Source of the DNA: Escherichia phage vB_EcoM_fHy-Eco03
Direction: 5' to 3' (one strand)
DNA length: 57,011 nucleotides
Sequence record: MW602648.1
Below, one piece after another: positions 1-57,011 of the stretch. The translations under genes and the position numbers were made by a program. How positions within the stretch are numbered: position 1 is the first letter of the stretch; every line of letters begins with the position of its first letter. Under the pieces are notes generated by a model that saw only the letters and a program-made list of their open reading frames with translations, was not told where the DNA came from and did no database searches.

Positions 1-45
1 GGCGCAAAAAGAAAAAAAGCCGGATTGCTTTTGAAATTATAGACA

Positions 46-74
46 TTTACACAAGTCTTAAACTATGTTACAAT
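46..74 (+). promoter_or_regulatory. Sigma70-like promoter (TTTACA-N17-TGtTACAAT) in terminal repeat
   Basis: TTTACA at 46..51, 17-bp spacer, TACAAT at 69..74 preceded by TG at 66..67; about 40 bp upstream of the ATG at 114. Duplicate at 53358..53386. Confidence 0.5.
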
Positions 75-113
75 AGTTATTATTTACAATGTTAAGCACA
101 ATAGGAATTCATC

Positions 114-311
114 ATGAGCTATACTGACCAACAAATTGACACAGCAGCGGTTTTATTGGCACAAGAGGTAGATTTATTGCATTCTTTGATGAATGCTAGT
201 CATGATAGAGCTGAAACTATCAAGAATCAGATACGGGAAATTTGGTCTCAGCAGGTCAGCAACGGTGTATCTTTGGACTTTTTGGTGTGCCGCCTGAGAG
301 GTCAACTGTAA
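114..311 (+). CDS. Hypothetical protein (65 aa)
   Basis: ATG ORF with AGGAA 6 nt upstream; stop overlaps the next start (TAATG). Confidence 0.5.
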   Translation: MSYTDQQIDTAAVLLAQEVDLLHSLMNASHDRAETIKNQIREIWSQQVSNGVSLDFLVCRLRGQL

Positions 312-736
312 TGGTAAACATAAGAAGCAAGGGCCAGAACTTTGAGCGTAAAATGTCGAAAATGTTCAATGAATCGTTCGGGTTATCTACTGAGAGAAAT
401 CTCCAGCAATCTATAAACGGTGGAGATGATTTGATGGGAGTCCCGTTCTTCAGCGTTGAGCTCAAGAAGCACAACACCAAAGCTATCGGGACTTGGTGGA
501 AGCAATGTGCGGAATCAGCACGGCGTCAAAGCAAGATGCCAGTGCTAATCTATGAGATGCCACGGCAAAAGCCCACTGTCGTGATGAGAATTGAGGACGT
601 CAGTCAAGCTTTGGCTGAGGCACCACTGTTGCCAGCGGCTAGTAACAGGCTCTTTGTGGGCTTGGTGGAATTAACATGGGAACAATTTTGCCGGGTCTAC
701 AACTTTTACGTTGCGCCCGGCGTCGAGGTTGCTTAG
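311..736 (+). CDS. Putative PD-(D/E)xK-family nuclease (141 aa)
   Basis: ATG at 311 overlaps the upstream stop. Motif GGDDLMGVPFFSVELKK (D...ELK) resembles the PD-(D/E)xK nuclease signature. Track ORF 242..736 is the same frame with an upstream start. Confidence 0.4.
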   Translation: MVNIRSKGQNFERKMSKMFNESFGLSTERNLQQSINGGDDLMGVPFFSVELKKHNTKAIGTWWKQCAESARRQSKMPVLIYEMPRQKPTVVMRIEDVSQALAEAPLLPAASNRLFVGLVELTWEQFCRVYNFYVAPGVEVA

Positions 737-774
737 GTTGATGCTTGCATCAACACCAGTCAACTGTAGTTGAC
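737..774. terminator. Two adjacent hairpins between convergent genes
   Basis: GTTGATG-cttg-CATCAAC (737..754) and GTCAAC-tgta-GTTGAC (759..774), between the + gene ending at 736 and the - gene ending at 777; no clear U-run. Confidence 0.3.
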
Positions 775-776
775 AC

Positions 777-962
777 TTAGTCTTGTTTCAACTCATCGCA
801 GATAACGCGTTGATTTTGAGCTGGTACAAACCCGAGTTCGAGCAAAGTGTAAGGACTATCGGCGACGCATTGTTCAATGGTAGTCCATTCAGTTTTGGAT
901 TCAATAATTTTGTAACTACAATCATGAGTAGCCACACATGTTGCCAGGATTAAGCCAATCAC
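777..962 (-). CDS. Hypothetical protein (61 aa, GTG start)
   Basis: GTG start overlaps the upstream stop (GTGA); GAAGGAG Shine-Dalgarno upstream. Confidence 0.45.
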   Translation of the reverse strand: MIGLILATCVATHDCSYKIIESKTEWTTIEQCVADSPYTLLELGFVPAQNQRVICDELKQD

Positions 963-1138
963 AAGTAATCTCCTTCAACCAGAAACTCAAACAATTGGTT
1001 GTAAACGTTGCAACCCTTAGCGAAAGAGCTTTCAGCAGGTTTACCATCGCGGACGATCATCATATATTCACCGCCATGAATATCCACCCAGTATTGCATG
1101 CCACCCTTGACAGGGTTACGTTGTAAGAATTTAAACAT
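959..1138 (-). CDS. Hypothetical protein (59 aa), absent from the ORF track
   Basis: Hand-translated: MFKFLQRNPVKGG...VEGDYL. AAGGAG 7 nt upstream of the ATG; start overlaps the upstream stop (TAATG) and stop overlaps the downstream GTG. Confidence 0.5.
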   Translation of the reverse strand: MFKFLQRNPVKGGMQYWVDIHGGEYMMIVRDGKPAESSFAKGCNVYNQLFEFLVEGDYL

Positions 1139-1383
1139 TATTTGCTCCTTACTCCAAGTTTATTCAATAACCACACTGTCATGTCAACCCAGGTTAACGG
1201 TACAGTTTTCGGGGGTTGATAAGACCAGCACTTTCCAGCTCTTTCCGCAATTTCTTCGCGCCTTGCCGCTTGGCGTAATACTGCATCGTCAGAAGTGCCG
1301 GCAGAAAAAATATCGGCAATACCAGATAAATCGCCTCGATGAACACGTCCAGCAAGTTCATGCAGTTGCTCCTCAGAAAACAT
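1138..1383 (-). CDS. Hypothetical protein (81 aa)
   Basis: ATG start overlaps the stop of the upstream small ORF (ATGTTTTCTGA); part of the coupled leftward array. Confidence 0.5.
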   Translation of the reverse strand: MFSEEQLHELAGRVHRGDLSGIADIFSAGTSDDAVLRQAARREEIAERAGKCWSYQPPKTVPLTWVDMTVWLLNKLGVRSK

Positions 1384-1492
1384 AAGACAACACCATTAGA
1401 ATGATGATAAAGACAGCAACGGCTTTCGCCATGCCACGAGATTCATTATACACCGGATTTTCAGTGGTGTACTCAACAACATGCTTTTTCAT
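1373..1492 (-). CDS. Small hydrophobic protein (39 aa), absent from the ORF track
   Basis: Hand-translated: MKKHVVEYTTENPVYNESRGMAKAVAVFIIILMVLSYVF. GGAGG Shine-Dalgarno upstream; hydrophobic C-terminal half suggests a membrane segment. Confidence 0.45.
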   Translation of the reverse strand: MKKHVVEYTTENPVYNESRGMAKAVAVFIIILMVLSYVF

Positions 1493-1549
1493 ACAACCTC
1501 CAGTGTGAGAAATATCAATTGATGGCACCCGCAGATGCCATCTCAGATA

Positions 1550-2122
1550 TTACTCGCCTTCAGTCTCAGATTTTTCTTCAGTCTGAGGTGCTGCGGCTTC
1601 GTAGACCGTCTTACCATCAGTGATTTTACCGGATTTAACATCGTTACGGTAATAACTCATGTAAGACTGTACAACACGTTTTGATTTAACATCATCTTCA
1701 GCCATTTCACAGGCTTTCATGGCATCCGCAAGAGCGAGTTTTGAATCGTCTTTGTCTGCCAAGTTGTAATCTTTGAAGACCGCGTAACAAGTATCTTTGG
1801 TACTCGGTCCTGAAGATTTACGAGTACAACCAGTTGAACCGGAACGACTAGCTTTCTTCACTTCAACATGCTCAACCTCAAGACTTTCAAGTGCCTTATA
1901 CAAAGCAGGCACCAGAACATCCTTGCTGTCTTTGTGGGTGACAGATGCTTCATCATCAAGACTTTTAATCATCTTGACCAGTTGAGCATTTTGGAACTCT
2001 TTGAGAGCGCCTTTCTCAACAACGATGCAACTCATCATGCCTTCCATTGACAGACCATCTTTGATGCCTTCAACAGAAAAAGCGGAAGTTAAGTAAACAT
2101 ACTGAGTGATAGAATTTTCCAT
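1550..2122 (-). CDS. Hypothetical early protein (190 aa)
   Basis: Long ORF with AAGAGGA Shine-Dalgarno upstream; largest ORF in the terminal repeat. Confidence 0.6.
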   Translation of the reverse strand: MENSITQYVYLTSAFSVEGIKDGLSMEGMMSCIVVEKGALKEFQNAQLVKMIKSLDDEASVTHKDSKDVLVPALYKALESLEVEHVEVKKASRSGSTGCTRKSSGPSTKDTCYAVFKDYNLADKDDSKLALADAMKACEMAEDDVKSKRVVQSYMSYYRNDVKSGKITDGKTVYEAAAPQTEEKSETEGE

Positions 2123-2252
2123 GATTTTGTCCTCTTGTTTGTGGTTGACATCATTATAATGTCATGACTTCAGTTGTTTGTACATCTCAAATCACACATT
2201 TTTGTGCAATTTTTATCATGCGGTACGAATTATACCGCATTGTAAAAATTAC

Positions 2253-2453
2253 TCAAGAAATAATTACCTCAGTAACTACTACAGTGTTAGCAGTCACTAA
2301 TGTCAAAACTTTACCAGCTTTTGACCTCACAGCTTTCAACCGTAATTGTGACTGTGTGTAATTATTCCACTCTTCATCACTGAGCACGGTCCTGGTAACT
2401 TCAGGTCGTTCATCTTTGCCAAGCTTCACTACTGTAACTTTGATTAATGGCAT
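2253..2453 (-). CDS. Hypothetical protein (66 aa)
   Basis: ORF packed 4 nt after the upstream gene. Confidence 0.45.
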   Translation of the reverse strand: MPLIKVTVVKLGKDERPEVTRTVLSDEEWNNYTQSQLRLKAVRSKAGKVLTLVTANTVVVTEVIIS

Positions 2454-2456
2454 TGC

Positions 2457-2684
2457 TTAAACCTCAAATTTTGATTCGTCATATTCAGGGTCAGTCACAT
2501 CACGAGTGACACAATTTTGGAGTGCAGTCCAGTATTTTTGGACTTCAGCACCCTCCATGTATAGTGTCCAACCGTGATAGTAACCCTCGAAACTATTCCA
2601 GGTCCGTTCCCAAATCTTTCCGTCTTCGAGCTTATACTCAGTTGGTCTTGAGTCAAACTCACGGATAGTTGTGAATGTTACCAT
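2457..2684 (-). CDS. Hypothetical protein (75 aa)
   Basis: ORF in the coupled leftward array. Confidence 0.45.
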   Translation of the reverse strand: MVTFTTIREFDSRPTEYKLEDGKIWERTWNSFEGYYHGWTLYMEGAEVQKYWTALQNCVTRDVTDPEYDESKFEV

Positions 2685-2753
2685 GCGTTGTTACGCCTCT
2701 GTTGAATAATTTCAATCATGAACTATCACAACTTTGATAGTTCATTGTTGAAA

Positions 2754-2933
2754 CTATTGTAACTTTGTACTAATTTGAATTGTCAATCTAAACTCTTCAA
2801 GTAAGTTATCAATGTTGGATTTATCTTCCACAGCGGTAGAAATTTGATCACTTACAATTTGAGCATTTGACTCAAGAAGTTCAATCAAATGTGTCAATTC
2901 GTCTGCTGTCAATGTCAATTCTTTCATCATCAT
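2754..2933 (-). CDS. Hypothetical acidic protein (59 aa), absent from the ORF track
   Basis: Hand-translated: MMMKELTLTADELTHLIELLESNAQIV... Start overlaps the stop of the upstream ORF (ATGATGA). Confidence 0.4.
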   Translation of the reverse strand: MMMKELTLTADELTHLIELLESNAQIVSDQISTAVEDKSNIDNLLEEFRLTIQISTKLQ

Positions 2934-3100
2934 TCTCCTGAGTTAAATTGTGTGTCAATTTCAATAACTTTGGAACGTACATATTCCAGACAGTCATCAT
3001 AATCGTATGAAGTGTAACTCGGCATTGGAGAATCCAACCCTTCGTTAACATTCCATTCACCTTCATTAACATCAAACCAGATGATTAATTGAGTATGCAT
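2930..3100 (-). CDS. Hypothetical protein (56 aa), absent from the ORF track
   Basis: Hand-translated: MHTQLIIWFDVNEGEWNVNEGLDSPMPSYTSYDYDDCLEYVRSKVIEIDTQFNSGE. AGGAGT Shine-Dalgarno 8 nt upstream of the ATG. Confidence 0.45.
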   Translation of the reverse strand: MHTQLIIWFDVNEGEWNVNEGLDSPMPSYTSYDYDDCLEYVRSKVIEIDTQFNSGE

Positions 3101-3270
3101 TGTTATTACTCCTGTGTTAAGTTGTTTCAGGTGAGACTACTAAACTACTAATAGTCTCTGGATGAAATAACTTCACAGAGAAACAAAACATGTACCAAAT
3201 TGTTAAAGAGCAAAAGACACCATTGACCATCTACCAGATGTGTCTGTTGACTGGTTAAGTACTAACTACA

Positions 3271-3462
3271 CTAAGTAACTACATGCATCCTCCTGAACCG
3301 TTTCTGTGTCAAGTTGTTCAACACATTCAATAAATACATTATGTCAAAGTCCCTGTTGGTTGTACACAATAGAAGTGCAAGTTTGTGCAAGCTTTTAGAA
3401 ATGATAATCATCTGCGGTTGATAGTGATTCTCGTATGCAATTGATATAGTAACGCTCGTCAC
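3271..3462 (-). CDS. Hypothetical protein (GTG start, uncertain)
   Basis: Track ORF; its 5' end overlaps repeat element A, so the start is uncertain. Confidence 0.3.
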   Translation of the reverse strand: MTSVTISIAYENHYQPQMIIISKSLHKLALLLCTTNRDFDIMYLLNVLNNLTQKRFRRMHVVT

Positions 3463-3545
3463 TACTCAGTGTGAAACAGTCGACGGGGGTAAACGTCACA
3501 CACCGGTGCTATATTAGTTCCCCGGCGCAATTTTTATAAAAAATA
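3440..3545. repeat. Imperfect direct repeat element A (about 100 bp)
   Basis: TTGATATAGTAACGCTCGTCACTACTCAGTGTGAAACAGTCGACGGGGGTAAACGTCACACACCGGTGCTATATTAGTTCCCCGGCGCAATTTTTAT aligns with element B 173 bp downstream. Confidence 0.6.
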
Positions 3546-3612
3546 CAATTTCGTTTGTAATCGTAGACATACGGTATAGTTGCGGCCCGGTACCGTCACG
3601 GTGAGTTGTGAT

Positions 3613-3720
3613 TACGATTGTAATGATAACGCACGTTACTATTCACTCTGAAGGGGTGCCGGGGGGTAATTGTCACCTAGGGGTGTTAATTTAAGCCCCG
3701 GCAAATTTTTTATTTTTTTC
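3613..3720. repeat. Imperfect direct repeat element B, spanning the terminal-repeat boundary
   Basis: TTGTAATGATAACGCACGTTACTATTCACTCTGAAGGGGTGCCGGGGGGTAATTGTCACCTAGGGGTGTTAATTTAAGCCCCGGCAAATTTTTTAT; the repeat boundary (3699/3700) falls inside it at CCCC|GGC. Confidence 0.6.
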
Positions 3721-3966
3721 GTCCTTTTTCATCTCAATCACTATCATTATGTGACAATCATCAGGTCACTGTACAATACCGTATACAATAAGCTTCACAA
3801 TCGCAATTGACTCTCCTCCATACAACAAAAGGCCCTCCAAAATTTTTTTATATCTTCCGTACCGAATATAGACACCTCTAAAAAGTGGTGTACTTTTCCA
3901 CCACTGCACGCTATCATTATTAGTAACTTCAACGGACTTCGGTCCTTCATATTGTGGGTTATATAA

Positions 3967-4461
3967 ATGGAAATTCAACAGCTTCTGCCATATCCGTACT
4001 ATATAGCTTGTGTCTTCAACCGAGCACAATACGATGAGCTTCGTGCTCAATTCAACTTACCAAGCTTTGGCTACTGGGAAGACCCAGAAGAAGAATGGCC
4101 AGTGGCTTCTGCATCATTCCTTGCACGCAAGGAACACCCTCGTAAACTGGGTATCATGTGCTTTTATGACAAGGATTTTGACATCTGCTCTGTAGCCCAC
4201 GAAGGTGTGCACATAATGTCTGACCTGATGCATCGCCTCGGCATTACCTACGACCCGTTAAACGACGAGCCGTATGCTTATCAGCTCGAGCAAATCATGT
4301 ACTTCGCACGGCATAAATACAACGAGCTTCACAGCGCTATTGAGCACGTTGAAAAGGCTGTTATTGACACAGGTAATCACCCTTTAGTGCTTGAACAGCC
4401 TCAAAATCAGCTCAATATGCTAAATTCGGCCCCTTCAACTGGCTTTCTGGACGGCAAATAA
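3967..4461 (+). CDS. Hypothetical protein with HExxH motif (164 aa)
   Basis: ORF containing HEGVH; first rightward gene after the terminal repeat. A metallopeptidase-like function is speculative. Confidence 0.4.
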   Translation: MEIQQLLPYPYYIACVFNRAQYDELRAQFNLPSFGYWEDPEEEWPVASASFLARKEHPRKLGIMCFYDKDFDICSVAHEGVHIMSDLMHRLGITYDPLNDEPYAYQLEQIMYFARHKYNELHSAIEHVEKAVIDTGNHPLVLEQPQNQLNMLNSAPSTGFLDGK

Positions 4462-8841: not shown

Positions 8842-10389
8842 ATGACAATTAGTCCAAGCACTCCCAATGTAGCATATCAGCGTCCTGAGCTTGTCAAGAA
8901 TGCTGGTAAGTATACACTAATTAAGGACTGCATCGAAGGTCAGGAAGCGATTAAGCAGAAAGGTGATATTTATCTGCCGCGTCCTGACCCGACGAACTGC
9001 ACGGAAGAAAACCTTGCACGATACGAGTCGTATAAACGTCGTGCAGTGTTCTACAACATTATTGCACGTACGTTGTCTGGTATGACAGGCCTGGTATTCC
9101 AACAGGAACCAGATATGTTAATGCCTGACGATATGAGTGTACTGAAAGTTAACATCGATGGTGCAGGTGTTGGCGCTGTACAACAGATGCGTAAAACCTT
9201 CAAAACTGTTCTGGCATTCGGTCGAGCTGGTATTCTGACTGACTTCCCGCCGGCTAAAGAAGACGGTTCAGGTTTTACACGTGCCGAAGTAATGAACGGT
9301 GAAGTGCAACCCACAATCACGATGTTCATGCCTTGGCAGGTTATTAACTGGCGCCAGGAATACCGTGAAGGTAAAGTAACACTGACCCAGGTTGTTATCT
9401 GTGAACAGATTCCAGGCGCGACAGATGGCTTCCAGCAGGATTATACTCCTGTATGGCGTCAACTGTACCTGGATGATGAAGGCAATTGCCGTCAGACAAT
9501 CTGGATTAACGAAGGTGACAAAAACGCCAAGGACACATACGGTGGTGCGCTGTACGTTCGCCAGCAAGACTACCAGATGTCTGACTCCAAAGGTCAGCCG
9601 CTGAAGTTCATCCCGTTCACCTTTGTGGGGTCAGAAACAAACAACCCGGATATTGACCCGGCGCCAATGTACGACCTGGCAGTCCTGAACATTGCGCACT
9701 ACCGTAACTCAGCAGACTACGAAGAATCATGTTTCGTAACTGGTCAGCCTACTGTCTGGGCGTCTGGCCTTACTGAAGCGTGGATTAAAGACGTGTTAGG
9801 TGGTCAGGTTCGTCTCGGTTCTTACGGTGGTATTCCGTTGCCGCCAAACGCAGCCGTTGGCATGATTCAGACTAACCCTAACACTCAACCATTCGAAGCT
9901 ATGAAGCAGAAAGAAGCACAGATGATTGCAATCGGTGCTCGTCTGATTCGCGAGAATGGTAGTGTTGAACGACGTGAAGTTGAAATTAAGAACGAAGCAG
10001 CATCTGAAGCATCTTTGATTGTTACAGTTGCTCAGAACGTTGAAGCTGCTTACCGTAAAGCACTTGAGTGGTGTGGTTTGTTCTACGGTCACAGCAAAGA
10101 AAGCATTACGCTGTCGCTGAGTTACAACTTCATCTATAGTCAGATGACTTATCAGGAACGCCAACAGCTGGTTAACGAATGGCTTAGCGGTGCAATTTCG
10201 TTTACTGAATTGCGTACTAACCTTAAACAGGCAGGTATTGCACGACAGACTAACGAAGAAGCCAAGTCAGAAATTGATAATGAAATGGCTGAACGCGATG
10301 CCAGAGAAGTCGCCAAACAAGCTGAACTGGCTAAGCAAAACGAGCCGTCAAATAACACCAATACTGACCCGGAAAAAAATTCCGAATAA
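8842..10389 (+). CDS. Portal protein
   Basis: 515-aa ORF directly after the large terminase; acidic C-terminal tail; conserved gene order. Confidence 0.65.
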   Translation: MTISPSTPNVAYQRPELVKNAGKYTLIKDCIEGQEAIKQKGDIYLPRPDPTNCTEENLARYESYKRRAVFYNIIARTLSGMTGLVFQQEPDMLMPDDMSVLKVNIDGAGVGAVQQMRKTFKTVLAFGRAGILTDFPPAKEDGSGFTRAEVMNGEVQPTITMFMPWQVINWRQEYREGKVTLTQVVICEQIPGATDGFQQDYTPVWRQLYLDDEGNCRQTIWINEGDKNAKDTYGGALYVRQQDYQMSDSKGQPLKFIPFTFVGSETNNPDIDPAPMYDLAVLNIAHYRNSADYEESCFVTGQPTVWASGLTEAWIKDVLGGQVRLGSYGGIPLPPNAAVGMIQTNPNTQPFEAMKQKEAQMIAIGARLIRENGSVERREVEIKNEAASEASLIVTVAQNVEAAYRKALEWCGLFYGHSKESITLSLSYNFIYSQMTYQERQQLVNEWLSGAISFTELRTNLKQAGIARQTNEEAKSEIDNEMAERDAREVAKQAELAKQNEPSNNTNTDPEKNSE

Positions 10390-10393
10390 AGTA

Positions 10394-10422
10394 TTTACAT
10401 TCTGTTCCACTGGTTATATAAT
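10394..10422 (+). promoter_or_regulatory. Sigma70-like promoter (TTTACA-N17-TATAAT) upstream of scaffold and capsid genes
   Basis: TTTACA 10394..10399, 17-bp spacer, TATAAT 10417..10422; followed by a long GC-rich inverted repeat at 10435..10498. Confidence 0.45.
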
Positions 10423-10565
10423 CTGGAACGTTGACCGCGCAAAAGGCCGGCCACTCGAGTCTGCAGGGCTCAGTGGATTACAGGGGCCGGCTGCGCGGTT
10501 GACGCCAACCCTGTTTAGAGCCCAGTTGAGCGGATTGAGCCCCTCTCATATAGGATTGAAAAATT

Positions 10566-11282
10566 ATGGCACTGAAAACGATTGTAGAATCACTCGACGA
10601 TATTGATGAAAGCTTTCACGGTCTGTATGTAAAAGACGACAGCGCGGGAGTTTACAAACTCGACGTTGAGCCGGATGAGCGCACAGCTAAAGAGCTGGAA
10701 GAACTGCGCAAAGAGAAGCAGCGTATGGAAGCCCATACCAAAAAGCTTCTTGAAGAAAAGAAAAAAGAAGCCGAGCGTGCTCGCCTTGCTGAAGAAGAGC
10801 GTGCGCGTCGTGAACGTGATGTTGAGTCGCTTGAGCGCTCCATCAAAGAAAAACACCAGGCTGAACTGGAAAATTATTCAGCGCGTACTGCTGCACTACA
10901 GGCGCAGCTGGAAGCGCAGATGGTTGATAACCTGGCGCTGAACCTGGCAAACCAACTCAGTGACACCCCTGCACTGATTATGCCACACATCAAGGCCCGA
11001 CTGCGCGCTCAGGAAATTGATGGTCGCTGGCGTACCAGTGTTGTTGATGTCATGGGTAACCCTACGGCTACAACACCTGATGAGTTAGTGGAACAAATGC
11101 GTGGTGACAAGCAGTTTGCTCCACTTGTACGTGGAACCCGTGCTGGCGGTGGCGGTGCTAACGGCGGCAATGCTAACCCTGGTGGGGAAGGCGGCGGTGG
11201 ACACGAACAGCCTAAATTCAATGGTGATGACCGTGTGGCACGTGCTCGTGCTAAAATCCAAAATACCAACTGGAATAAATAA
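10566..11282 (+). CDS. Scaffolding protein
   Basis: 238 aa, charged coiled-coil segment (KELEELRKEKQRMEAHTKKLLEEKKKEAERARLAEEERARRER), Gly-rich C-terminus; sits between portal and major capsid genes. Confidence 0.55.
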   Translation: MALKTIVESLDDIDESFHGLYVKDDSAGVYKLDVEPDERTAKELEELRKEKQRMEAHTKKLLEEKKKEAERARLAEEERARRERDVESLERSIKEKHQAELENYSARTAALQAQLEAQMVDNLALNLANQLSDTPALIMPHIKARLRAQEIDGRWRTSVVDVMGNPTATTPDELVEQMRGDKQFAPLVRGTRAGGGGANGGNANPGGEGGGGHEQPKFNGDDRVARARAKIQNTNWNK

Positions 11283-11284
11283 TC

Positions 11285-12253
11285 ATGACTTTATACGTAT
11301 TTAACGAACAAGTACGGTCCACCGCCACCGAACTGGTTGACCAGGACGTCCAGAAATTCAACGAAGCTTCAGCCGGTACCCTTATCCTGGGTAACCAGTA
11401 TGTAATCGGCGATTACGTTGAGCAGGCAATGTGGCAGCTGGTTGACGGCATCGCACAGCGCCGTAACGCATACGGCGGTACTACTGCTGTTGACGCCCAG
11501 ACGCTCGGCCAGATTCTGGACCGCTCTGTTAAAATCGACGGCCGTGTTGGTCCTCTGAACATCACCGGCACCATGATGCGTCGTATCGGTGCAGGTGACA
11601 CTGAACCTGCAGCTGTTGTTGCTGCGCAGGCTTCTGCTGCAATGTTCCAGGACTACCTGAACACCACCGCTGCTTGTCTGGTAGCTGCTATCGGCGGTAA
11701 CGCTAAAGTGGTTAAAGACGTTTCCGGCGAAACTGGTGATGCTGCTAACATCAGCATGCAGGGTCTGAACAAAGCTAACGCCCTGATGGGTGACCGCTCT
11801 CAGCAGATTCGTGCGTACATCATGCACTCTATGGCGTTCCACTCACTGGTTGACCAGGCGATTAACAACGCCGAGCGTCTGTTCTCCATCGGTGACCTGA
11901 CCGTGTACCGCGACTTCCTGGGTCGTCGTTACGTCGTCTCCGATATTCCTGCACTTGTGGGCGAAGAAGGCGCATACAAAACTCTGGGTCTGACTCCGTC
12001 AGCTGCTATCGTTCAGGTCGGCGGTCTGTACGATATGGTTACCTCCGAAAAAACCGGTGGTGAAAACATCCTGCGTCAGATGCAGGGTGAATACGACTTC
12101 AACGTGTCTCTGAAAGGTTACAGCTGGGTCGGTCAGAAAACTGGTCAGTCTCCGACTGATGCTGAGCTGGCTGCTAATGCTTCCTGGCAGAAAGTTGCTA
12201 CCTCTGACAAAGACACCGCGGGCGTTATGCTGCTGGCTAAGTCTGTAATCTAA
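11285..12253 (+). CDS. Major capsid protein
   Basis: 322-aa ORF after the scaffold gene; codon usage typical of a highly expressed gene; followed by a strong terminator. Confidence 0.65.
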   Translation: MTLYVFNEQVRSTATELVDQDVQKFNEASAGTLILGNQYVIGDYVEQAMWQLVDGIAQRRNAYGGTTAVDAQTLGQILDRSVKIDGRVGPLNITGTMMRRIGAGDTEPAAVVAAQASAAMFQDYLNTTAACLVAAIGGNAKVVKDVSGETGDAANISMQGLNKANALMGDRSQQIRAYIMHSMAFHSLVDQAINNAERLFSIGDLTVYRDFLGRRYVVSDIPALVGEEGAYKTLGLTPSAAIVQVGGLYDMVTSEKTGGENILRQMQGEYDFNVSLKGYSWVGQKTGQSPTDAELAANASWQKVATSDKDTAGVMLLAKSVI

Positions 12254-12272: not shown

Positions 12273-12304
12273 AAAGCTGCATCTGACGAGATGCAGCTTT
12301 TTTA
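12273..12304 (+). terminator. Rho-independent terminator after the major capsid gene
   Basis: Perfect 11-bp stem AAAGCTGCATC / GATGCAGCTTT with a 6-nt loop, followed by a T-run. Confidence 0.8.
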
Positions 12305-12325: not shown

Positions 12326-12694
12326 ATGGGTGGCGCAAGAATCAAACCAGAACCTTCACACATTCGCGGAATATGTATTACAGAAGGTTGTATTAACCCT
12401 CAAGTACGCAGGGATAAAAATAATTATAGAGCACATTGTGCTTCTTGCCACAACAAACGTCATAACATAGGTCCATCGCGATTTAAATATAGAAAGTTTA
12501 AAAAAGATGTTTGTGAAGAATGCGGATTTGTACCAGTACATCCATGTCAGTTAGATGTTGACCACGTAGATGGTAACCATAAAAACGATGACCCTTCTAA
12601 TTTGCGTACTCTTTGCGCTAACTGCCATAGACTCAAAACATACCTTAACAGGGACTGTGTCTCTAACTCTTCAGGTTTACTTGTACAAAATTAG
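12326..12694 (+). CDS. HNH endonuclease
   Basis: Cys-rich N-terminus (CASCHNKRH) and HNH core DVDHVDGNHKNDDPSNLRTLCANCH; free-standing gene inside the structural operon. Confidence 0.7.
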   Translation: MGGARIKPEPSHIRGICITEGCINPQVRRDKNNYRAHCASCHNKRHNIGPSRFKYRKFKKDVCEECGFVPVHPCQLDVDHVDGNHKNDDPSNLRTLCANCHRLKTYLNRDCVSNSSGLLVQN

Positions 12695-53203: not shown

Positions 53204-53357
53204 TATATAAAAGATAGAGAGTATTTAAAACAAGTACTTAGGCATCCTTATTCATGTAATCCGGTTATATGTATTATATAATTATCAGATTGGATAAGAA
53301 AAAGTTATTGCCGGCGCAAAAAGAAAAAAAGCCGGATTGCTTTTGAAATTATAGACA

Positions 53358-53386
53358 TTTACACAAGTCTTAAACTATGTTACAAT
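53358..53386 (+). promoter_or_regulatory. Copy of the terminal-repeat promoter (TTTACA-N17-TGtTACAAT)
   Basis: Duplicate of 46..74. Confidence 0.5.
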
Positions 53387-53425
53387 AGTTATTATTTACA
53401 ATGTTAAGCACAATAGGAATTCATC

Positions 53426-53623
53426 ATGAGCTATACTGACCAACAAATTGACACAGCAGCGGTTTTATTGGCACAAGAGGTAGATTTATTGCATTCTTTG
53501 ATGAATGCTAGTCATGATAGAGCTGAAACTATCAAGAATCAGATACGGGAAATTTGGTCTCAGCAGGTCAGCAACGGTGTATCTTTGGACTTTTTGGTGT
53601 GCCGCCTGAGAGGTCAACTGTAA
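53426..53623 (+). CDS. Hypothetical protein (duplicate of 114..311)
   Basis: Identical copy in the right terminal repeat. Confidence 0.5.
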   Translation: MSYTDQQIDTAAVLLAQEVDLLHSLMNASHDRAETIKNQIREIWSQQVSNGVSLDFLVCRLRGQL

Positions 53624-54048
53624 TGGTAAACATAAGAAGCAAGGGCCAGAACTTTGAGCGTAAAATGTCGAAAATGTTCAATGAATCGTTCGGGTTATCT
53701 ACTGAGAGAAATCTCCAGCAATCTATAAACGGTGGAGATGATTTGATGGGAGTCCCGTTCTTCAGCGTTGAGCTCAAGAAGCACAACACCAAAGCTATCG
53801 GGACTTGGTGGAAGCAATGTGCGGAATCAGCACGGCGTCAAAGCAAGATGCCAGTGCTAATCTATGAGATGCCACGGCAAAAGCCCACTGTCGTGATGAG
53901 AATTGAGGACGTCAGTCAAGCTTTGGCTGAGGCACCACTGTTGCCAGCGGCTAGTAACAGGCTCTTTGTGGGCTTGGTGGAATTAACATGGGAACAATTT
54001 TGCCGGGTCTACAACTTTTACGTTGCGCCCGGCGTCGAGGTTGCTTAG
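53623..54048 (+). CDS. Putative PD-(D/E)xK-family nuclease (duplicate of 311..736)
   Basis: Identical copy in the right terminal repeat. Confidence 0.4.
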   Translation: MVNIRSKGQNFERKMSKMFNESFGLSTERNLQQSINGGDDLMGVPFFSVELKKHNTKAIGTWWKQCAESARRQSKMPVLIYEMPRQKPTVVMRIEDVSQALAEAPLLPAASNRLFVGLVELTWEQFCRVYNFYVAPGVEVA

Positions 54049-54088
54049 GTTGATGCTTGCATCAACACCAGTCAACTGTAGTTGACAC

Positions 54089-54274
54089 TTAGTCTTGTTT
54101 CAACTCATCGCAGATAACGCGTTGATTTTGAGCTGGTACAAACCCGAGTTCGAGCAAAGTGTAAGGACTATCGGCGACGCATTGTTCAATGGTAGTCCAT
54201 TCAGTTTTGGATTCAATAATTTTGTAACTACAATCATGAGTAGCCACACATGTTGCCAGGATTAAGCCAATCAC
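54089..54274 (-). CDS. Hypothetical protein (duplicate of 777..962)
   Basis: Identical copy in the right terminal repeat. Confidence 0.45.
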   Translation of the reverse strand: MIGLILATCVATHDCSYKIIESKTEWTTIEQCVADSPYTLLELGFVPAQNQRVICDELKQD

Positions 54275-54450
54275 AAGTAATCTCCTTCAACCAGAAACTC
54301 AAACAATTGGTTGTAAACGTTGCAACCCTTAGCGAAAGAGCTTTCAGCAGGTTTACCATCGCGGACGATCATCATATATTCACCGCCATGAATATCCACC
54401 CAGTATTGCATGCCACCCTTGACAGGGTTACGTTGTAAGAATTTAAACAT
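54271..54450 (-). CDS. Hypothetical protein (duplicate of 959..1138)
   Basis: Identical copy in the right terminal repeat. Confidence 0.5.
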   Translation of the reverse strand: MFKFLQRNPVKGGMQYWVDIHGGEYMMIVRDGKPAESSFAKGCNVYNQLFEFLVEGDYL

Positions 54451-54695
54451 TATTTGCTCCTTACTCCAAGTTTATTCAATAACCACACTGTCATGTCAAC
54501 CCAGGTTAACGGTACAGTTTTCGGGGGTTGATAAGACCAGCACTTTCCAGCTCTTTCCGCAATTTCTTCGCGCCTTGCCGCTTGGCGTAATACTGCATCG
54601 TCAGAAGTGCCGGCAGAAAAAATATCGGCAATACCAGATAAATCGCCTCGATGAACACGTCCAGCAAGTTCATGCAGTTGCTCCTCAGAAAACAT
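54450..54695 (-). CDS. Hypothetical protein (duplicate of 1138..1383)
   Basis: Identical copy in the right terminal repeat. Confidence 0.5.
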   Translation of the reverse strand: MFSEEQLHELAGRVHRGDLSGIADIFSAGTSDDAVLRQAARREEIAERAGKCWSYQPPKTVPLTWVDMTVWLLNKLGVRSK

Positions 54696-54804
54696 AAGAC
54701 AACACCATTAGAATGATGATAAAGACAGCAACGGCTTTCGCCATGCCACGAGATTCATTATACACCGGATTTTCAGTGGTGTACTCAACAACATGCTTTT
54801 TCAT
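54685..54804 (-). CDS. Small hydrophobic protein (duplicate of 1373..1492)
   Basis: Identical copy in the right terminal repeat. Confidence 0.45.
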   Translation of the reverse strand: MKKHVVEYTTENPVYNESRGMAKAVAVFIIILMVLSYVF

Positions 54805-54861
54805 ACAACCTCCAGTGTGAGAAATATCAATTGATGGCACCCGCAGATGCCATCTCAGATA

Positions 54862-55434
54862 TTACTCGCCTTCAGTCTCAGATTTTTCTTCAGTCTGAGG
54901 TGCTGCGGCTTCGTAGACCGTCTTACCATCAGTGATTTTACCGGATTTAACATCGTTACGGTAATAACTCATGTAAGACTGTACAACACGTTTTGATTTA
55001 ACATCATCTTCAGCCATTTCACAGGCTTTCATGGCATCCGCAAGAGCGAGTTTTGAATCGTCTTTGTCTGCCAAGTTGTAATCTTTGAAGACCGCGTAAC
55101 AAGTATCTTTGGTACTCGGTCCTGAAGATTTACGAGTACAACCAGTTGAACCGGAACGACTAGCTTTCTTCACTTCAACATGCTCAACCTCAAGACTTTC
55201 AAGTGCCTTATACAAAGCAGGCACCAGAACATCCTTGCTGTCTTTGTGGGTGACAGATGCTTCATCATCAAGACTTTTAATCATCTTGACCAGTTGAGCA
55301 TTTTGGAACTCTTTGAGAGCGCCTTTCTCAACAACGATGCAACTCATCATGCCTTCCATTGACAGACCATCTTTGATGCCTTCAACAGAAAAAGCGGAAG
55401 TTAAGTAAACATACTGAGTGATAGAATTTTCCAT
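54862..55434 (-). CDS. Hypothetical early protein (duplicate of 1550..2122)
   Basis: Identical copy in the right terminal repeat. Confidence 0.6.
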   Translation of the reverse strand: MENSITQYVYLTSAFSVEGIKDGLSMEGMMSCIVVEKGALKEFQNAQLVKMIKSLDDEASVTHKDSKDVLVPALYKALESLEVEHVEVKKASRSGSTGCTRKSSGPSTKDTCYAVFKDYNLADKDDSKLALADAMKACEMAEDDVKSKRVVQSYMSYYRNDVKSGKITDGKTVYEAAAPQTEEKSETEGE

Positions 55435-55564
55435 GATTTTGTCCTCTTGTTTGTGGTTGACATCATTATAATGTCATGACTTCAGTTGTTTGTACATCTC
55501 AAATCACACATTTTTGTGCAATTTTTATCATGCGGTACGAATTATACCGCATTGTAAAAATTAC

Positions 55565-55765
55565 TCAAGAAATAATTACCTCAGTAACTACTACAGTGTT
55601 AGCAGTCACTAATGTCAAAACTTTACCAGCTTTTGACCTCACAGCTTTCAACCGTAATTGTGACTGTGTGTAATTATTCCACTCTTCATCACTGAGCACG
55701 GTCCTGGTAACTTCAGGTCGTTCATCTTTGCCAAGCTTCACTACTGTAACTTTGATTAATGGCAT
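55565..55765 (-). CDS. Hypothetical protein (duplicate of 2253..2453)
   Basis: Identical copy in the right terminal repeat. Confidence 0.45.
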   Translation of the reverse strand: MPLIKVTVVKLGKDERPEVTRTVLSDEEWNNYTQSQLRLKAVRSKAGKVLTLVTANTVVVTEVIIS

Positions 55766-55768
55766 TGC

Positions 55769-55996
55769 TTAAACCTCAAATTTTGATTCGTCATATTCAG
55801 GGTCAGTCACATCACGAGTGACACAATTTTGGAGTGCAGTCCAGTATTTTTGGACTTCAGCACCCTCCATGTATAGTGTCCAACCGTGATAGTAACCCTC
55901 GAAACTATTCCAGGTCCGTTCCCAAATCTTTCCGTCTTCGAGCTTATACTCAGTTGGTCTTGAGTCAAACTCACGGATAGTTGTGAATGTTACCAT
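55769..55996 (-). CDS. Hypothetical protein (duplicate of 2457..2684)
   Basis: Identical copy in the right terminal repeat. Confidence 0.45.
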   Translation of the reverse strand: MVTFTTIREFDSRPTEYKLEDGKIWERTWNSFEGYYHGWTLYMEGAEVQKYWTALQNCVTRDVTDPEYDESKFEV

Positions 55997-56065
55997 GCGT
56001 TGTTACGCCTCTGTTGAATAATTTCAATCATGAACTATCACAACTTTGATAGTTCATTGTTGAAA

Positions 56066-56245
56066 CTATTGTAACTTTGTACTAATTTGAATTGTCAATC
56101 TAAACTCTTCAAGTAAGTTATCAATGTTGGATTTATCTTCCACAGCGGTAGAAATTTGATCACTTACAATTTGAGCATTTGACTCAAGAAGTTCAATCAA
56201 ATGTGTCAATTCGTCTGCTGTCAATGTCAATTCTTTCATCATCAT
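56066..56245 (-). CDS. Hypothetical protein (duplicate of 2754..2933)
   Basis: Identical copy in the right terminal repeat. Confidence 0.4.
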   Translation of the reverse strand: MMMKELTLTADELTHLIELLESNAQIVSDQISTAVEDKSNIDNLLEEFRLTIQISTKLQ

Positions 56246-56412
56246 TCTCCTGAGTTAAATTGTGTGTCAATTTCAATAACTTTGGAACGTACATATTCCA
56301 GACAGTCATCATAATCGTATGAAGTGTAACTCGGCATTGGAGAATCCAACCCTTCGTTAACATTCCATTCACCTTCATTAACATCAAACCAGATGATTAA
56401 TTGAGTATGCAT
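56242..56412 (-). CDS. Hypothetical protein (duplicate of 2930..3100)
   Basis: Identical copy in the right terminal repeat. Confidence 0.45.
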   Translation of the reverse strand: MHTQLIIWFDVNEGEWNVNEGLDSPMPSYTSYDYDDCLEYVRSKVIEIDTQFNSGE

Positions 56413-56582
56413 TGTTATTACTCCTGTGTTAAGTTGTTTCAGGTGAGACTACTAAACTACTAATAGTCTCTGGATGAAATAACTTCACAGAGAAACAAAA
56501 CATGTACCAAATTGTTAAAGAGCAAAAGACACCATTGACCATCTACCAGATGTGTCTGTTGACTGGTTAAGTACTAACTACA

Positions 56583-56774
56583 CTAAGTAACTACATGCAT
56601 CCTCCTGAACCGTTTCTGTGTCAAGTTGTTCAACACATTCAATAAATACATTATGTCAAAGTCCCTGTTGGTTGTACACAATAGAAGTGCAAGTTTGTGC
56701 AAGCTTTTAGAAATGATAATCATCTGCGGTTGATAGTGATTCTCGTATGCAATTGATATAGTAACGCTCGTCAC
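56583..56774 (-). CDS. Hypothetical protein (duplicate of 3271..3462)
   Basis: Identical copy in the right terminal repeat. Confidence 0.3.
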   Translation of the reverse strand: MTSVTISIAYENHYQPQMIIISKSLHKLALLLCTTNRDFDIMYLLNVLNNLTQKRFRRMHVVT

Positions 56775-57011
56775 TACTCAGTGTGAAACAGTCGACGGGG
56801 GTAAACGTCACACACCGGTGCTATATTAGTTCCCCGGCGCAATTTTTATAAAAAATACAATTTCGTTTGTAATCGTAGACATACGGTATAGTTGCGGCCC
56901 GGTACCGTCACGGTGAGTTGTGATTACGATTGTAATGATAACGCACGTTACTATTCACTCTGAAGGGGTGCCGGGGGGTAATTGTCACCTAGGGGTGTTA
57001 ATTTAAGCCCC

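Follow-up and report, generated by a model that had tools for sequence, protein, structure and literature searches.

A conserved structured RNA in the leader of the scaffold and major capsid genes of Rosemountvirus-like phages

Promoter, genes and limits of the transcription unit

The stretch of DNA studied here (hereafter, the window) comprises 57,011 nt from vB_EcoM_fHy-Eco03, a Rosemountvirus-like myovirus. The portal gene (8842–10389, plus strand, Pfam DUF4055) is separated from the scaffold gene by a gap of 176 bp, from the end of the portal ORF at 10389 to the scaffold ATG at 10566, and this gap holds a promoter and a leader that precedes the genes of the two most abundant virion-assembly proteins. 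Phages of Rosemountvirus and Loughboroughvirus are under development for the biocontrol of Salmonella, E. coli, and Cronobacter. The locus is composed of the following elements.

10394–10422, plus strand: sigma-70-type promoter, TTTACA (10394–10399), 17-nt spacer, TATAAT (10417–10422)
10566–11282, plus strand: scaffold gene (ORF), served by the leader
11285–12253, plus strand: major capsid gene (Pfam Gp13-like, E = 1e-105), served by the leader
12276–12303, plus strand: predicted intrinsic terminator closing the unit, GCUGCAUC-UGACGA-GAUGCAGC followed by U6, –19.5 kcal/mol

The promoter matches the consensus in 11 of 12 positions. It had been described, as TTTACA-N17-TATAAT within the 176-bp gap, in an earlier note on this DNA made from the sequence alone, and a check against the sequence shows the gap, the promoter, and all coordinates given there to be correct. 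Both the –35 and the –10 boxes are retained in 12 out of 12 relatives, while the spacer sequence varies. A promoter at the equivalent site has been predicted in phage S144 (PMC7432712), and in the literature on these phages this prediction is all that we found for the site. The transcription start is predicted at 10428–10430. Only 4 nt, without a terminator, separate the portal stop from the –35 box; hence, upstream transcripts are expected to read through and would carry the leader hairpin described below internally.

The earlier note also placed the –10 box in the loop of a small hairpin. The underlying repeat, GTTCCA (10404–10409) and TGGAAC (10424–10429), is indeed present, but relatives of the BP63 and S144 types, and even SOI901, lack the hairpin around the –10 box, so that it is not conserved and is most likely due to chance.

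At the other end of the unit, the terminator at 12276–12303 was read from the sequence, and is not listed in the consensus scan of the whole window. A further conserved near-consensus promoter, for the next genes, is located 3' of it. The promoter, the leader, the scaffold and capsid genes, and the terminator are thus predicted to form a discrete unit of ~1.9 kb.

Two observations concern the region past the capsid gene. The terminator loop UGACGA is kept in the window (12276–12303), in phage KE25 (L001, ~3870–3905), and in the metagenomic relative L015 (~4340–4375), with entirely different stems (GCUGCAUC in the window, GGGCAAGC in KE25, and CCCCGGC in L015), that is, with stem covariation around a conserved loop. 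Between the capsid terminator and the next promoter, the window has an ORF for a 122-aa protein with an HNH endonuclease domain (12326–12694, plus strand, Pfam PF01844, E = 1.8e-8). This segment of ~370 bp appears to be an insertion of a homing endonuclease, since neither the close relative KE25 nor L015 has it.

In total, 19 near-consensus sigma-70 promoters were observed on both strands of the window, mostly with TTTACA or TTTACT as the –35 box. A long structured leader is found only at the scaffold promoter, the other near-consensus promoters examined having short leaders; several of the latter are located ~20–35 nt 5' of a start codon. This suggests that many short units are transcribed from promoters of their own, which leads one to ask how late timing arises.

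Fold of the leader RNA

The leader contains a structured RNA of 125 nt (10430–10554, plus strand), which extends from about the predicted start to the ribosome-binding site and consists of two domains, a 74-nt imperfect hairpin (10430–10503, helices P1, P2, and P3) and a small second domain (helices P4a, P4b, and P5). Its parts are listed below; models A and B are two alternative folds of the inner part of the hairpin.

10430–10440, plus strand: 5' strand of P1, GUUGACCGCGC, paired with 10493–10503; starts 7 nt past the –10 box
10493–10503, plus strand: 3' strand of P1, GCGCGGUUGAC, paired with 10430–10440
10446–10452 and 10485–10491, plus strand: P2, GCCGGCC with GGCCGGC, 7 pairs
10458–10464 and 10473–10479, plus strand: P3, hairpin top in model B, AGUCUGC with GUGGAUU, 5–7 bp (inner part 10460–10464/10473–10477, UCUGC/GUGGA)
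10465–10472, plus strand: apical loop in model B, 8 nt, AGGGCUCA (A-GGGCUCA)
10451–10455/10472–10476 and 10457–10459/10469–10471, plus strand: model A, alternative inner fold, CCACU/AGUGG and GAG/CUC
10466–10472, plus strand: 5' strand of the likely pseudoknot, GGGCUCA, in the apical loop
10510–10554, plus strand: second domain (P4a, P4b, P5), after a short linker
10510–10514 and 10550–10554, plus strand: P4a, CCUGU with AUAGG, 5 pairs, two with double changes
10517–10520 and 10543–10546, plus strand: P4b, AGAG with CUCU, 4 pairs, two with double changes
within 10521–10533, plus strand: P5, small hairpin; its sequence differs between lineages, and a hairpin may be drawn in each
10536–10542, plus strand: 3' strand of the likely pseudoknot, UGAGCCC, in the conserved single-stranded junction from P5 to P4b

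The long GC-rich inverted repeat reported in the earlier note at 10435–10498 is present, and as RNA it extends to the complete hairpin of 10430–10503. RNA folding, proposed there as a check, yields –42.6 kcal/mol for this hairpin (z = –5.7), and none of 200 shuffled sequences is as stable, whereas the opposite strand yields –31.4 kcal/mol (z = –2.7). The base of the hairpin is formed by GUUGAC (10430–10435) pairing with GUUGAC (10498–10503), including two G·U pairs; the two GTTGAC copies, then, had been correctly noticed, but they are the base of an RNA stem and not a flanking direct repeat. Out of the 11 pairs of P1, six have changes on both sides, and 98.5% of cells are paired. One position of P2 is occupied by three types of pair, G-C, G·U, and A-U, each in four sequences. 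P1 and P2 are separated by an internal loop, and P2 and P3, by an irregular segment. Altogether, at least 20 bp (about two turns) of coaxial double-stranded RNA are present, with 11 bp in P1, 7 bp in P2, 5–7 bp in P3, and extra pairs of the minimum-free-energy fold.

The covariation fits both inner folds. In every sequence tested, the minimum free energy is that of model B, which is 3–8 kcal/mol better than model A and leaves the whole apical loop free.

The earlier note covered only the first half of the element: the conserved part runs 50 nt further, to 10554, and contains a complement of the hairpin loop. P5 and P4b are separated by a 9-nt junction that ends with UGAGCCC (10536–10542), and the complementarity of this strand to the apical loop, GGGYUCA/UGARCCC, is 7 out of 7 in all 12 sequences. 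The loop–junction duplex amounts to –13.2 kcal/mol, and a perfect 7-nt complement of the loop in the downstream 62 nt is found in 0.5% of shuffles. In the L015 clade the Y/R pair changes on both sides, from C-G to U-A. As this covariation is a single event on one branch, we consider the formation of the loop–junction pseudoknot likely and short of proven. In the segments UCUGYAGGGYUCA and UGARCCCCU, all lineages are identical except for the Y/R positions.

The 3' strand of the pseudoknot ends 9 nt before the Shine-Dalgarno sequence AGGA (10552–10555), which in the window is overlapped by the 3' strand of P4a. Such an overlap of P4a with the ribosome-binding site is seen only in the window-type, BP63-type, and L016 sequences. 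The L015 clade has a separate Shine-Dalgarno sequence just 3' of P4a, and so simple sequestration is not universal.

The alignment comprised 12 distinct leaders from about five lineages; it was fitted by hand and padded with N, as MAFFT alone misplaced the second domain. Pair counts from this alignment are biased towards the structure to which it was fitted, standard pairs constituting 98.0–99.1% of 432–492 pair cells. Double-sided changes are observed at 13–14 pairs, compared to 1–3 in slid-register controls with the 3' partners moved by 1–3 columns, and these counts, strong as they are, do not represent independent events, since the sequences fall into few lineages. The observed covariation was reached in none of 500 column shuffles.

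The strand is indicated by three types of data. Out of 492 pair cells, 57 are G·U on the plus strand; these would become A·C mismatches on the minus strand, or in the opposite arm of a cruciform, which points to RNA of the plus strand. The plus strand folds 6–12 kcal/mol better than the minus strand in five lineages. The covariance model of the leader, R1, scores 78–102 bits on the plus strand and at most 26 bits on the minus strand. Given these G·U pairs, folding energies, and covariance-model scores, the element is an RNA with the same orientation as the structural genes. In the window, the R1 match spans 10430–10554 and is the single copy in 57 kb.

The DNA of the hairpin contains FseI (GGCCGGCC), XhoI (CTCGAG), and PstI (CTGCAG) sites within 22 bp (10445–10466). 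A cloning linker at this position was considered and rejected, as the same or nearly the same sequence is present in wild relatives and metagenomes.

Conservation and distribution

The gap is present in about 60 GenBank phages, belonging to Rosemountvirus and Loughboroughvirus and including Erwinia phage SOI901. It is 84% identical to the BP63/ZCSE2 types, compared to ~80% for the flanking 1.2 kb. Metagenomic relatives (L015–L018, L115, and L116), with scaffold proteins 53–58% identical, have a gap of 175–220 nt with the same element; leader DNA identity in these relatives is 62–71%, on par with the neighboring genes (59–73%). The comparison with relatives proposed in the earlier note thus shows the element to be kept, in 12 distinct versions from about five lineages. 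Free variation is seen in the promoter spacer, in the 6–7 nt past the –10 box, and in several junctions, as opposed to the –35 and –10 boxes, the helical segments, the apical loop, and one strand of a junction, which are retained.

The base of P1 is found 6–7 nt past the –10 box in all 12 sequences, the intervening nucleotides not being conserved. With this spacing, pairing would begin no more than ~2 nt from the expected start, and the predicted unpaired 5' tail, counted from the predicted start site, would be 0–2 nt.

Beyond this group, scans of IMG/VR with exact or degenerate core patterns yielded only five close relatives. A metagenome scan with the core pattern yielded 91 stretches (L020–L110), of which only one, the intermediate relative L036, carries the element, the rest being chance matches without flanking stems. 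Pattern scans of GTDB genomes and protein-guided scans of viral and genome contigs also retrieved close relatives only. In phages with distant scaffold homologs (at most 39% identity; L111–L114, Stenotrophomonas Bhz54, and Cronobacter phiES15), a MuF-like head-morphogenesis gene is located between the portal and scaffold genes, the capsid genes are Gp13-like, and only 35–75 nt precede the scaffold gene; no match to R1 was found in these gaps. As these homologs have no model match, the element, as far as sequence comparison goes, is clade-specific.

The leader is not protein-coding. In six-frame translations of 16 leaders no frame is open in all lineages, the leaders of L015–L018 and L115 have stops in all six frames, and lineage indels are not multiples of three. 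The short “hypothetical protein” CDSs annotated here in KE25 and SOI901 have no conserved frame, and we do not consider them credible.

Scans of the window, L015, and L016 leaders against Rfam 15 (E ≤ 10) yielded no family at the gathering threshold, be it a riboswitch, a ribozyme, a phage RNA such as phi29 pRNA, or an sRNA. Sub-threshold matches were long-hairpin miRNA precursors with 13–29 bits against thresholds of 57–100, along with other matches due to chance, and were inconsistent between the three leaders. The leader is a real, conserved, previously uncatalogued structured RNA, of the kind of structured 5' UTR control elements and outside any defined family.

Several records deserve mention. 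The contig L017 has an extra 106-aa ORF with no assigned function (1962–2282) between the portal gene and the promoter, with the promoter–leader spacing unchanged. JAEWER010000021.1 (L119), labeled as a MAG of a “Bacillota bacterium,” and PP583539.1, labeled as “Listeria phage 220426122051,” carry the scaffold gene and the leader with ~80% identity; the labels are probably binning or host-label errors.

Possible functions

Of the options raised in the earlier note, an RNA 5' stem-loop controlling the capsid mRNA is the one favored by the covarying stem, its G·U pairs, and its start 6–7 nt past the –10 box. We regard it as somewhat more probable than not that the element is a cis-acting 5' leader whose paired 5' end protects the scaffold/capsid mRNA and whose pseudoknotted second domain sets the accessibility of the ribosome-binding site. 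The strong host-type promoter would give rise to a ~1.9-kb message for the scaffold and major capsid proteins, headed by the structured leader, which begins no more than about 2 nt from the predicted start, and ending at the terminator past the capsid gene. The P1-P2-P3 hairpin, by pairing the extreme 5' end, would hinder 5'-end-dependent decay (RppH, RNase E), and the mRNA encoding the two head proteins of highest abundance would be long-lived. The apical loop would dock via the 7-bp pseudoknot on the junction strand of the second domain, and, as the closing helix of this domain abuts or overlaps the ribosome-binding site, the fold may set the level of scaffold translation, in either direction.

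The capsid leader of T7 gene 10 is a known 5'-terminal stabilizer stem-loop. Stem-loops at the 5' end stabilize E. coli mRNAs (Emory, Bouvet and Belasco, 1992; Bouvet and Belasco, 1992; Arnold et al., 1998; all as cited in PMC3997798). Among known systems, the leader would function most like the stabilizers of the ompA and papA 5' UTRs: a very highly expressed message would begin directly with a hairpin and have little or no unpaired tail; the latter is the feature that blocks RppH/RNase E 5'-end-dependent decay (references in PMC3997798). At the same time, its hairpin is larger than those of the ompA type (74 nt vs. about 20–30 nt), and it has in addition an invariant apical loop, a second conserved domain, and the likely loop–junction pseudoknot. 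A plain stabilizer hairpin would not need an invariant loop and junction, and so more specific recognition must occur; the invariant parts argue for more than a passive hairpin, and a switch operated by a ligand or a protein remains a candidate.

In the rep mRNAs of IncI-alpha and IncB plasmids, a hairpin loop pairs with a stretch a few nucleotides 5' of the ribosome-binding site, and this pairing controls the initiation of translation. The leader would combine a stabilizer with a pseudoknot of this type, its hairpin loop being able to pair with a stretch immediately 5' of the Shine-Dalgarno sequence (7 out of 7 nt in each of 12 sequences). The complementary stretch comprises 7 nt here vs. 4–8 nt of different sequence in the plasmids, and there is no sequence homology. 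As for antisense or leader-peptide control of the IncI-alpha/IncB type, we observe no conserved ORF in the leader and no near-consensus minus-strand promoter within or beside it.

Among the other explanations, the hairpin could be an RNase III processing site, another option raised in the earlier note, with the host enzyme cutting the imperfect P1-P2-P3 helix of ~25–30 bp and thereby splitting portal read-through from the scaffold/capsid message, or remodeling the leader so that translation is changed. Phage substrates of RNase III are exemplified by R1.1 and other R-sites of T7 and by the leader of lambda N. The leader is similar to these sites in being a long coaxial helix interrupted by internal loops in a leader or intergenic region at highly expressed genes; moreover, with only 4 nt and no terminator between the portal stop and the promoter, the hairpin would be internal in upstream transcripts, and the weak Rfam matches are of the long-hairpin (miRNA precursor) type. 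However, unlike T7 R-sites and the lambda N leader, the element begins exactly at the predicted primary 5' end, and the 6–7-nt distance from the –10 box to P1, fixed in all lineages, points to a role at such an end, whereas processing by RNase III would not call for it. The additional parts, that is, the invariant apical loop, the junction complementary to it, and the second domain, are not needed for recognition by RNase III, and we consider this explanation unlikely. The switch mentioned above has, in our view, a similarly small chance of being correct. In this case, the invariant loop and junction would bind a small molecule or a phage protein, e.g., free scaffold or portal protein acting autogenously, and the RNA would shift between model A, where the pseudoknot strand is partly buried, and docked model B, with scaffold/capsid translation going up or down. 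Covarying stems combined with invariant nucleotides in a loop and a junction are typical for RNAs binding ligands or proteins, and either of the two mutually exclusive inner folds agrees with the covariation. In phage P22, production of the scaffolding protein is subject to post-transcriptional autoregulation (Casjens and Adams, 1985; Wyckoff and Casjens, 1985; both as cited in PMC5529062), which provides a precedent for linking it to the state of assembly. P22 is unrelated to the phages studied here, though, and by this analogy binding of a protein to the leader is only a candidate idea. We know of no RNA operator defined for the autoregulation of P22 scaffolding. Against the switch, the Rfam scans yielded no match to known riboswitches, and the ligand or protein partner is hypothetical; besides, model A is less stable by 3–8 kcal/mol in all sequences, and bistability is not evident from energies alone. 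If the leader does bind a ligand or an assembly protein, it would be a regulatory RNA of a new class, acting either as a sensor similar to riboswitches or as an operator for free scaffold or portal protein, and tying head-protein synthesis to a cellular signal or to the procapsid state via toggling of the pseudoknot near the ribosome-binding site; we put this forward as a speculative and rather improbable extension.

Action at the level of transcription, by promoter-proximal RNA modifying the polymerase (processive antitermination, as with HK022 put), or by pausing or attenuation, seems very unlikely. The leader is a two-domain RNA just 3' of a promoter, a position and shape that would fit a put-type element, the phage relies on the host RNA polymerase, and a terminator is located 1.8 kb downstream; but the hairpin has no U-tract and so is not an attenuator, and the only downstream terminator (12276–12303) is followed by its own conserved promoter for the next genes, which makes read-through unneeded. 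Even less probable is a free-standing RNA released from the leader, which could act in trans as a small RNA or take part in assembly or packaging. In its favor are the compactness, stability, and strong conservation of the fold, its location between the portal and scaffold genes, and an obligate interaction of the portal with mRNA that has been hypothesized for P22 assembly (PMC5529062). Yet there is no terminator or obvious processing signal before the scaffold ORF, no complementary target at up to three mismatches and no second copy were found elsewhere in the genome, and the Rfam scans yielded no match to phi29 pRNA or sRNA families. The least probable of all is an element acting as DNA, such as an operator (also suggested in the earlier note), a cruciform, or a packaging or replication site. 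It would explain a GC-rich inverted repeat adjoining a promoter, and several GenBank records of relatives stop just upstream. On the other side, the 57 of 492 cells with G·U pairs on the plus strand would be mismatches in DNA or on the minus strand, the R1 scores disfavor an operator in the same way (78–102 vs. at most 26 bits), and neither the second domain nor the complement of the loop would be meaningful in DNA. A genome terminus or pac site at the leader was rejected: positions 1–3699 of the window are repeated exactly, in direct orientation, at 53313–57011, in agreement with the 3699-bp direct terminal repeats described as the genome ends of fHy-Eco03 (PMC8145870), and the termini of S144 map elsewhere.

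Returning to the cis-acting leader, it makes the post-transcriptional control of capsid assembly genes directly accessible to experiment in a phage dependent on the host RNA polymerase alone, and it might find use as a compact 5' UTR module where strong and stable expression in enterobacteria is wanted.

Two further observations concern the genomes themselves. An unknown DNA modification that blocks many restriction enzymes has been described for fHy-Eco03 (PMC8145870). Thirteen records of Salmonella phages (emiel, birk, ciri, and others; MT074434–MT074446, with NC_048864 corresponding to L009) stop 2 nt 5' of the promoter region; this point appears to be an arbitrary linearization and not a physical end.
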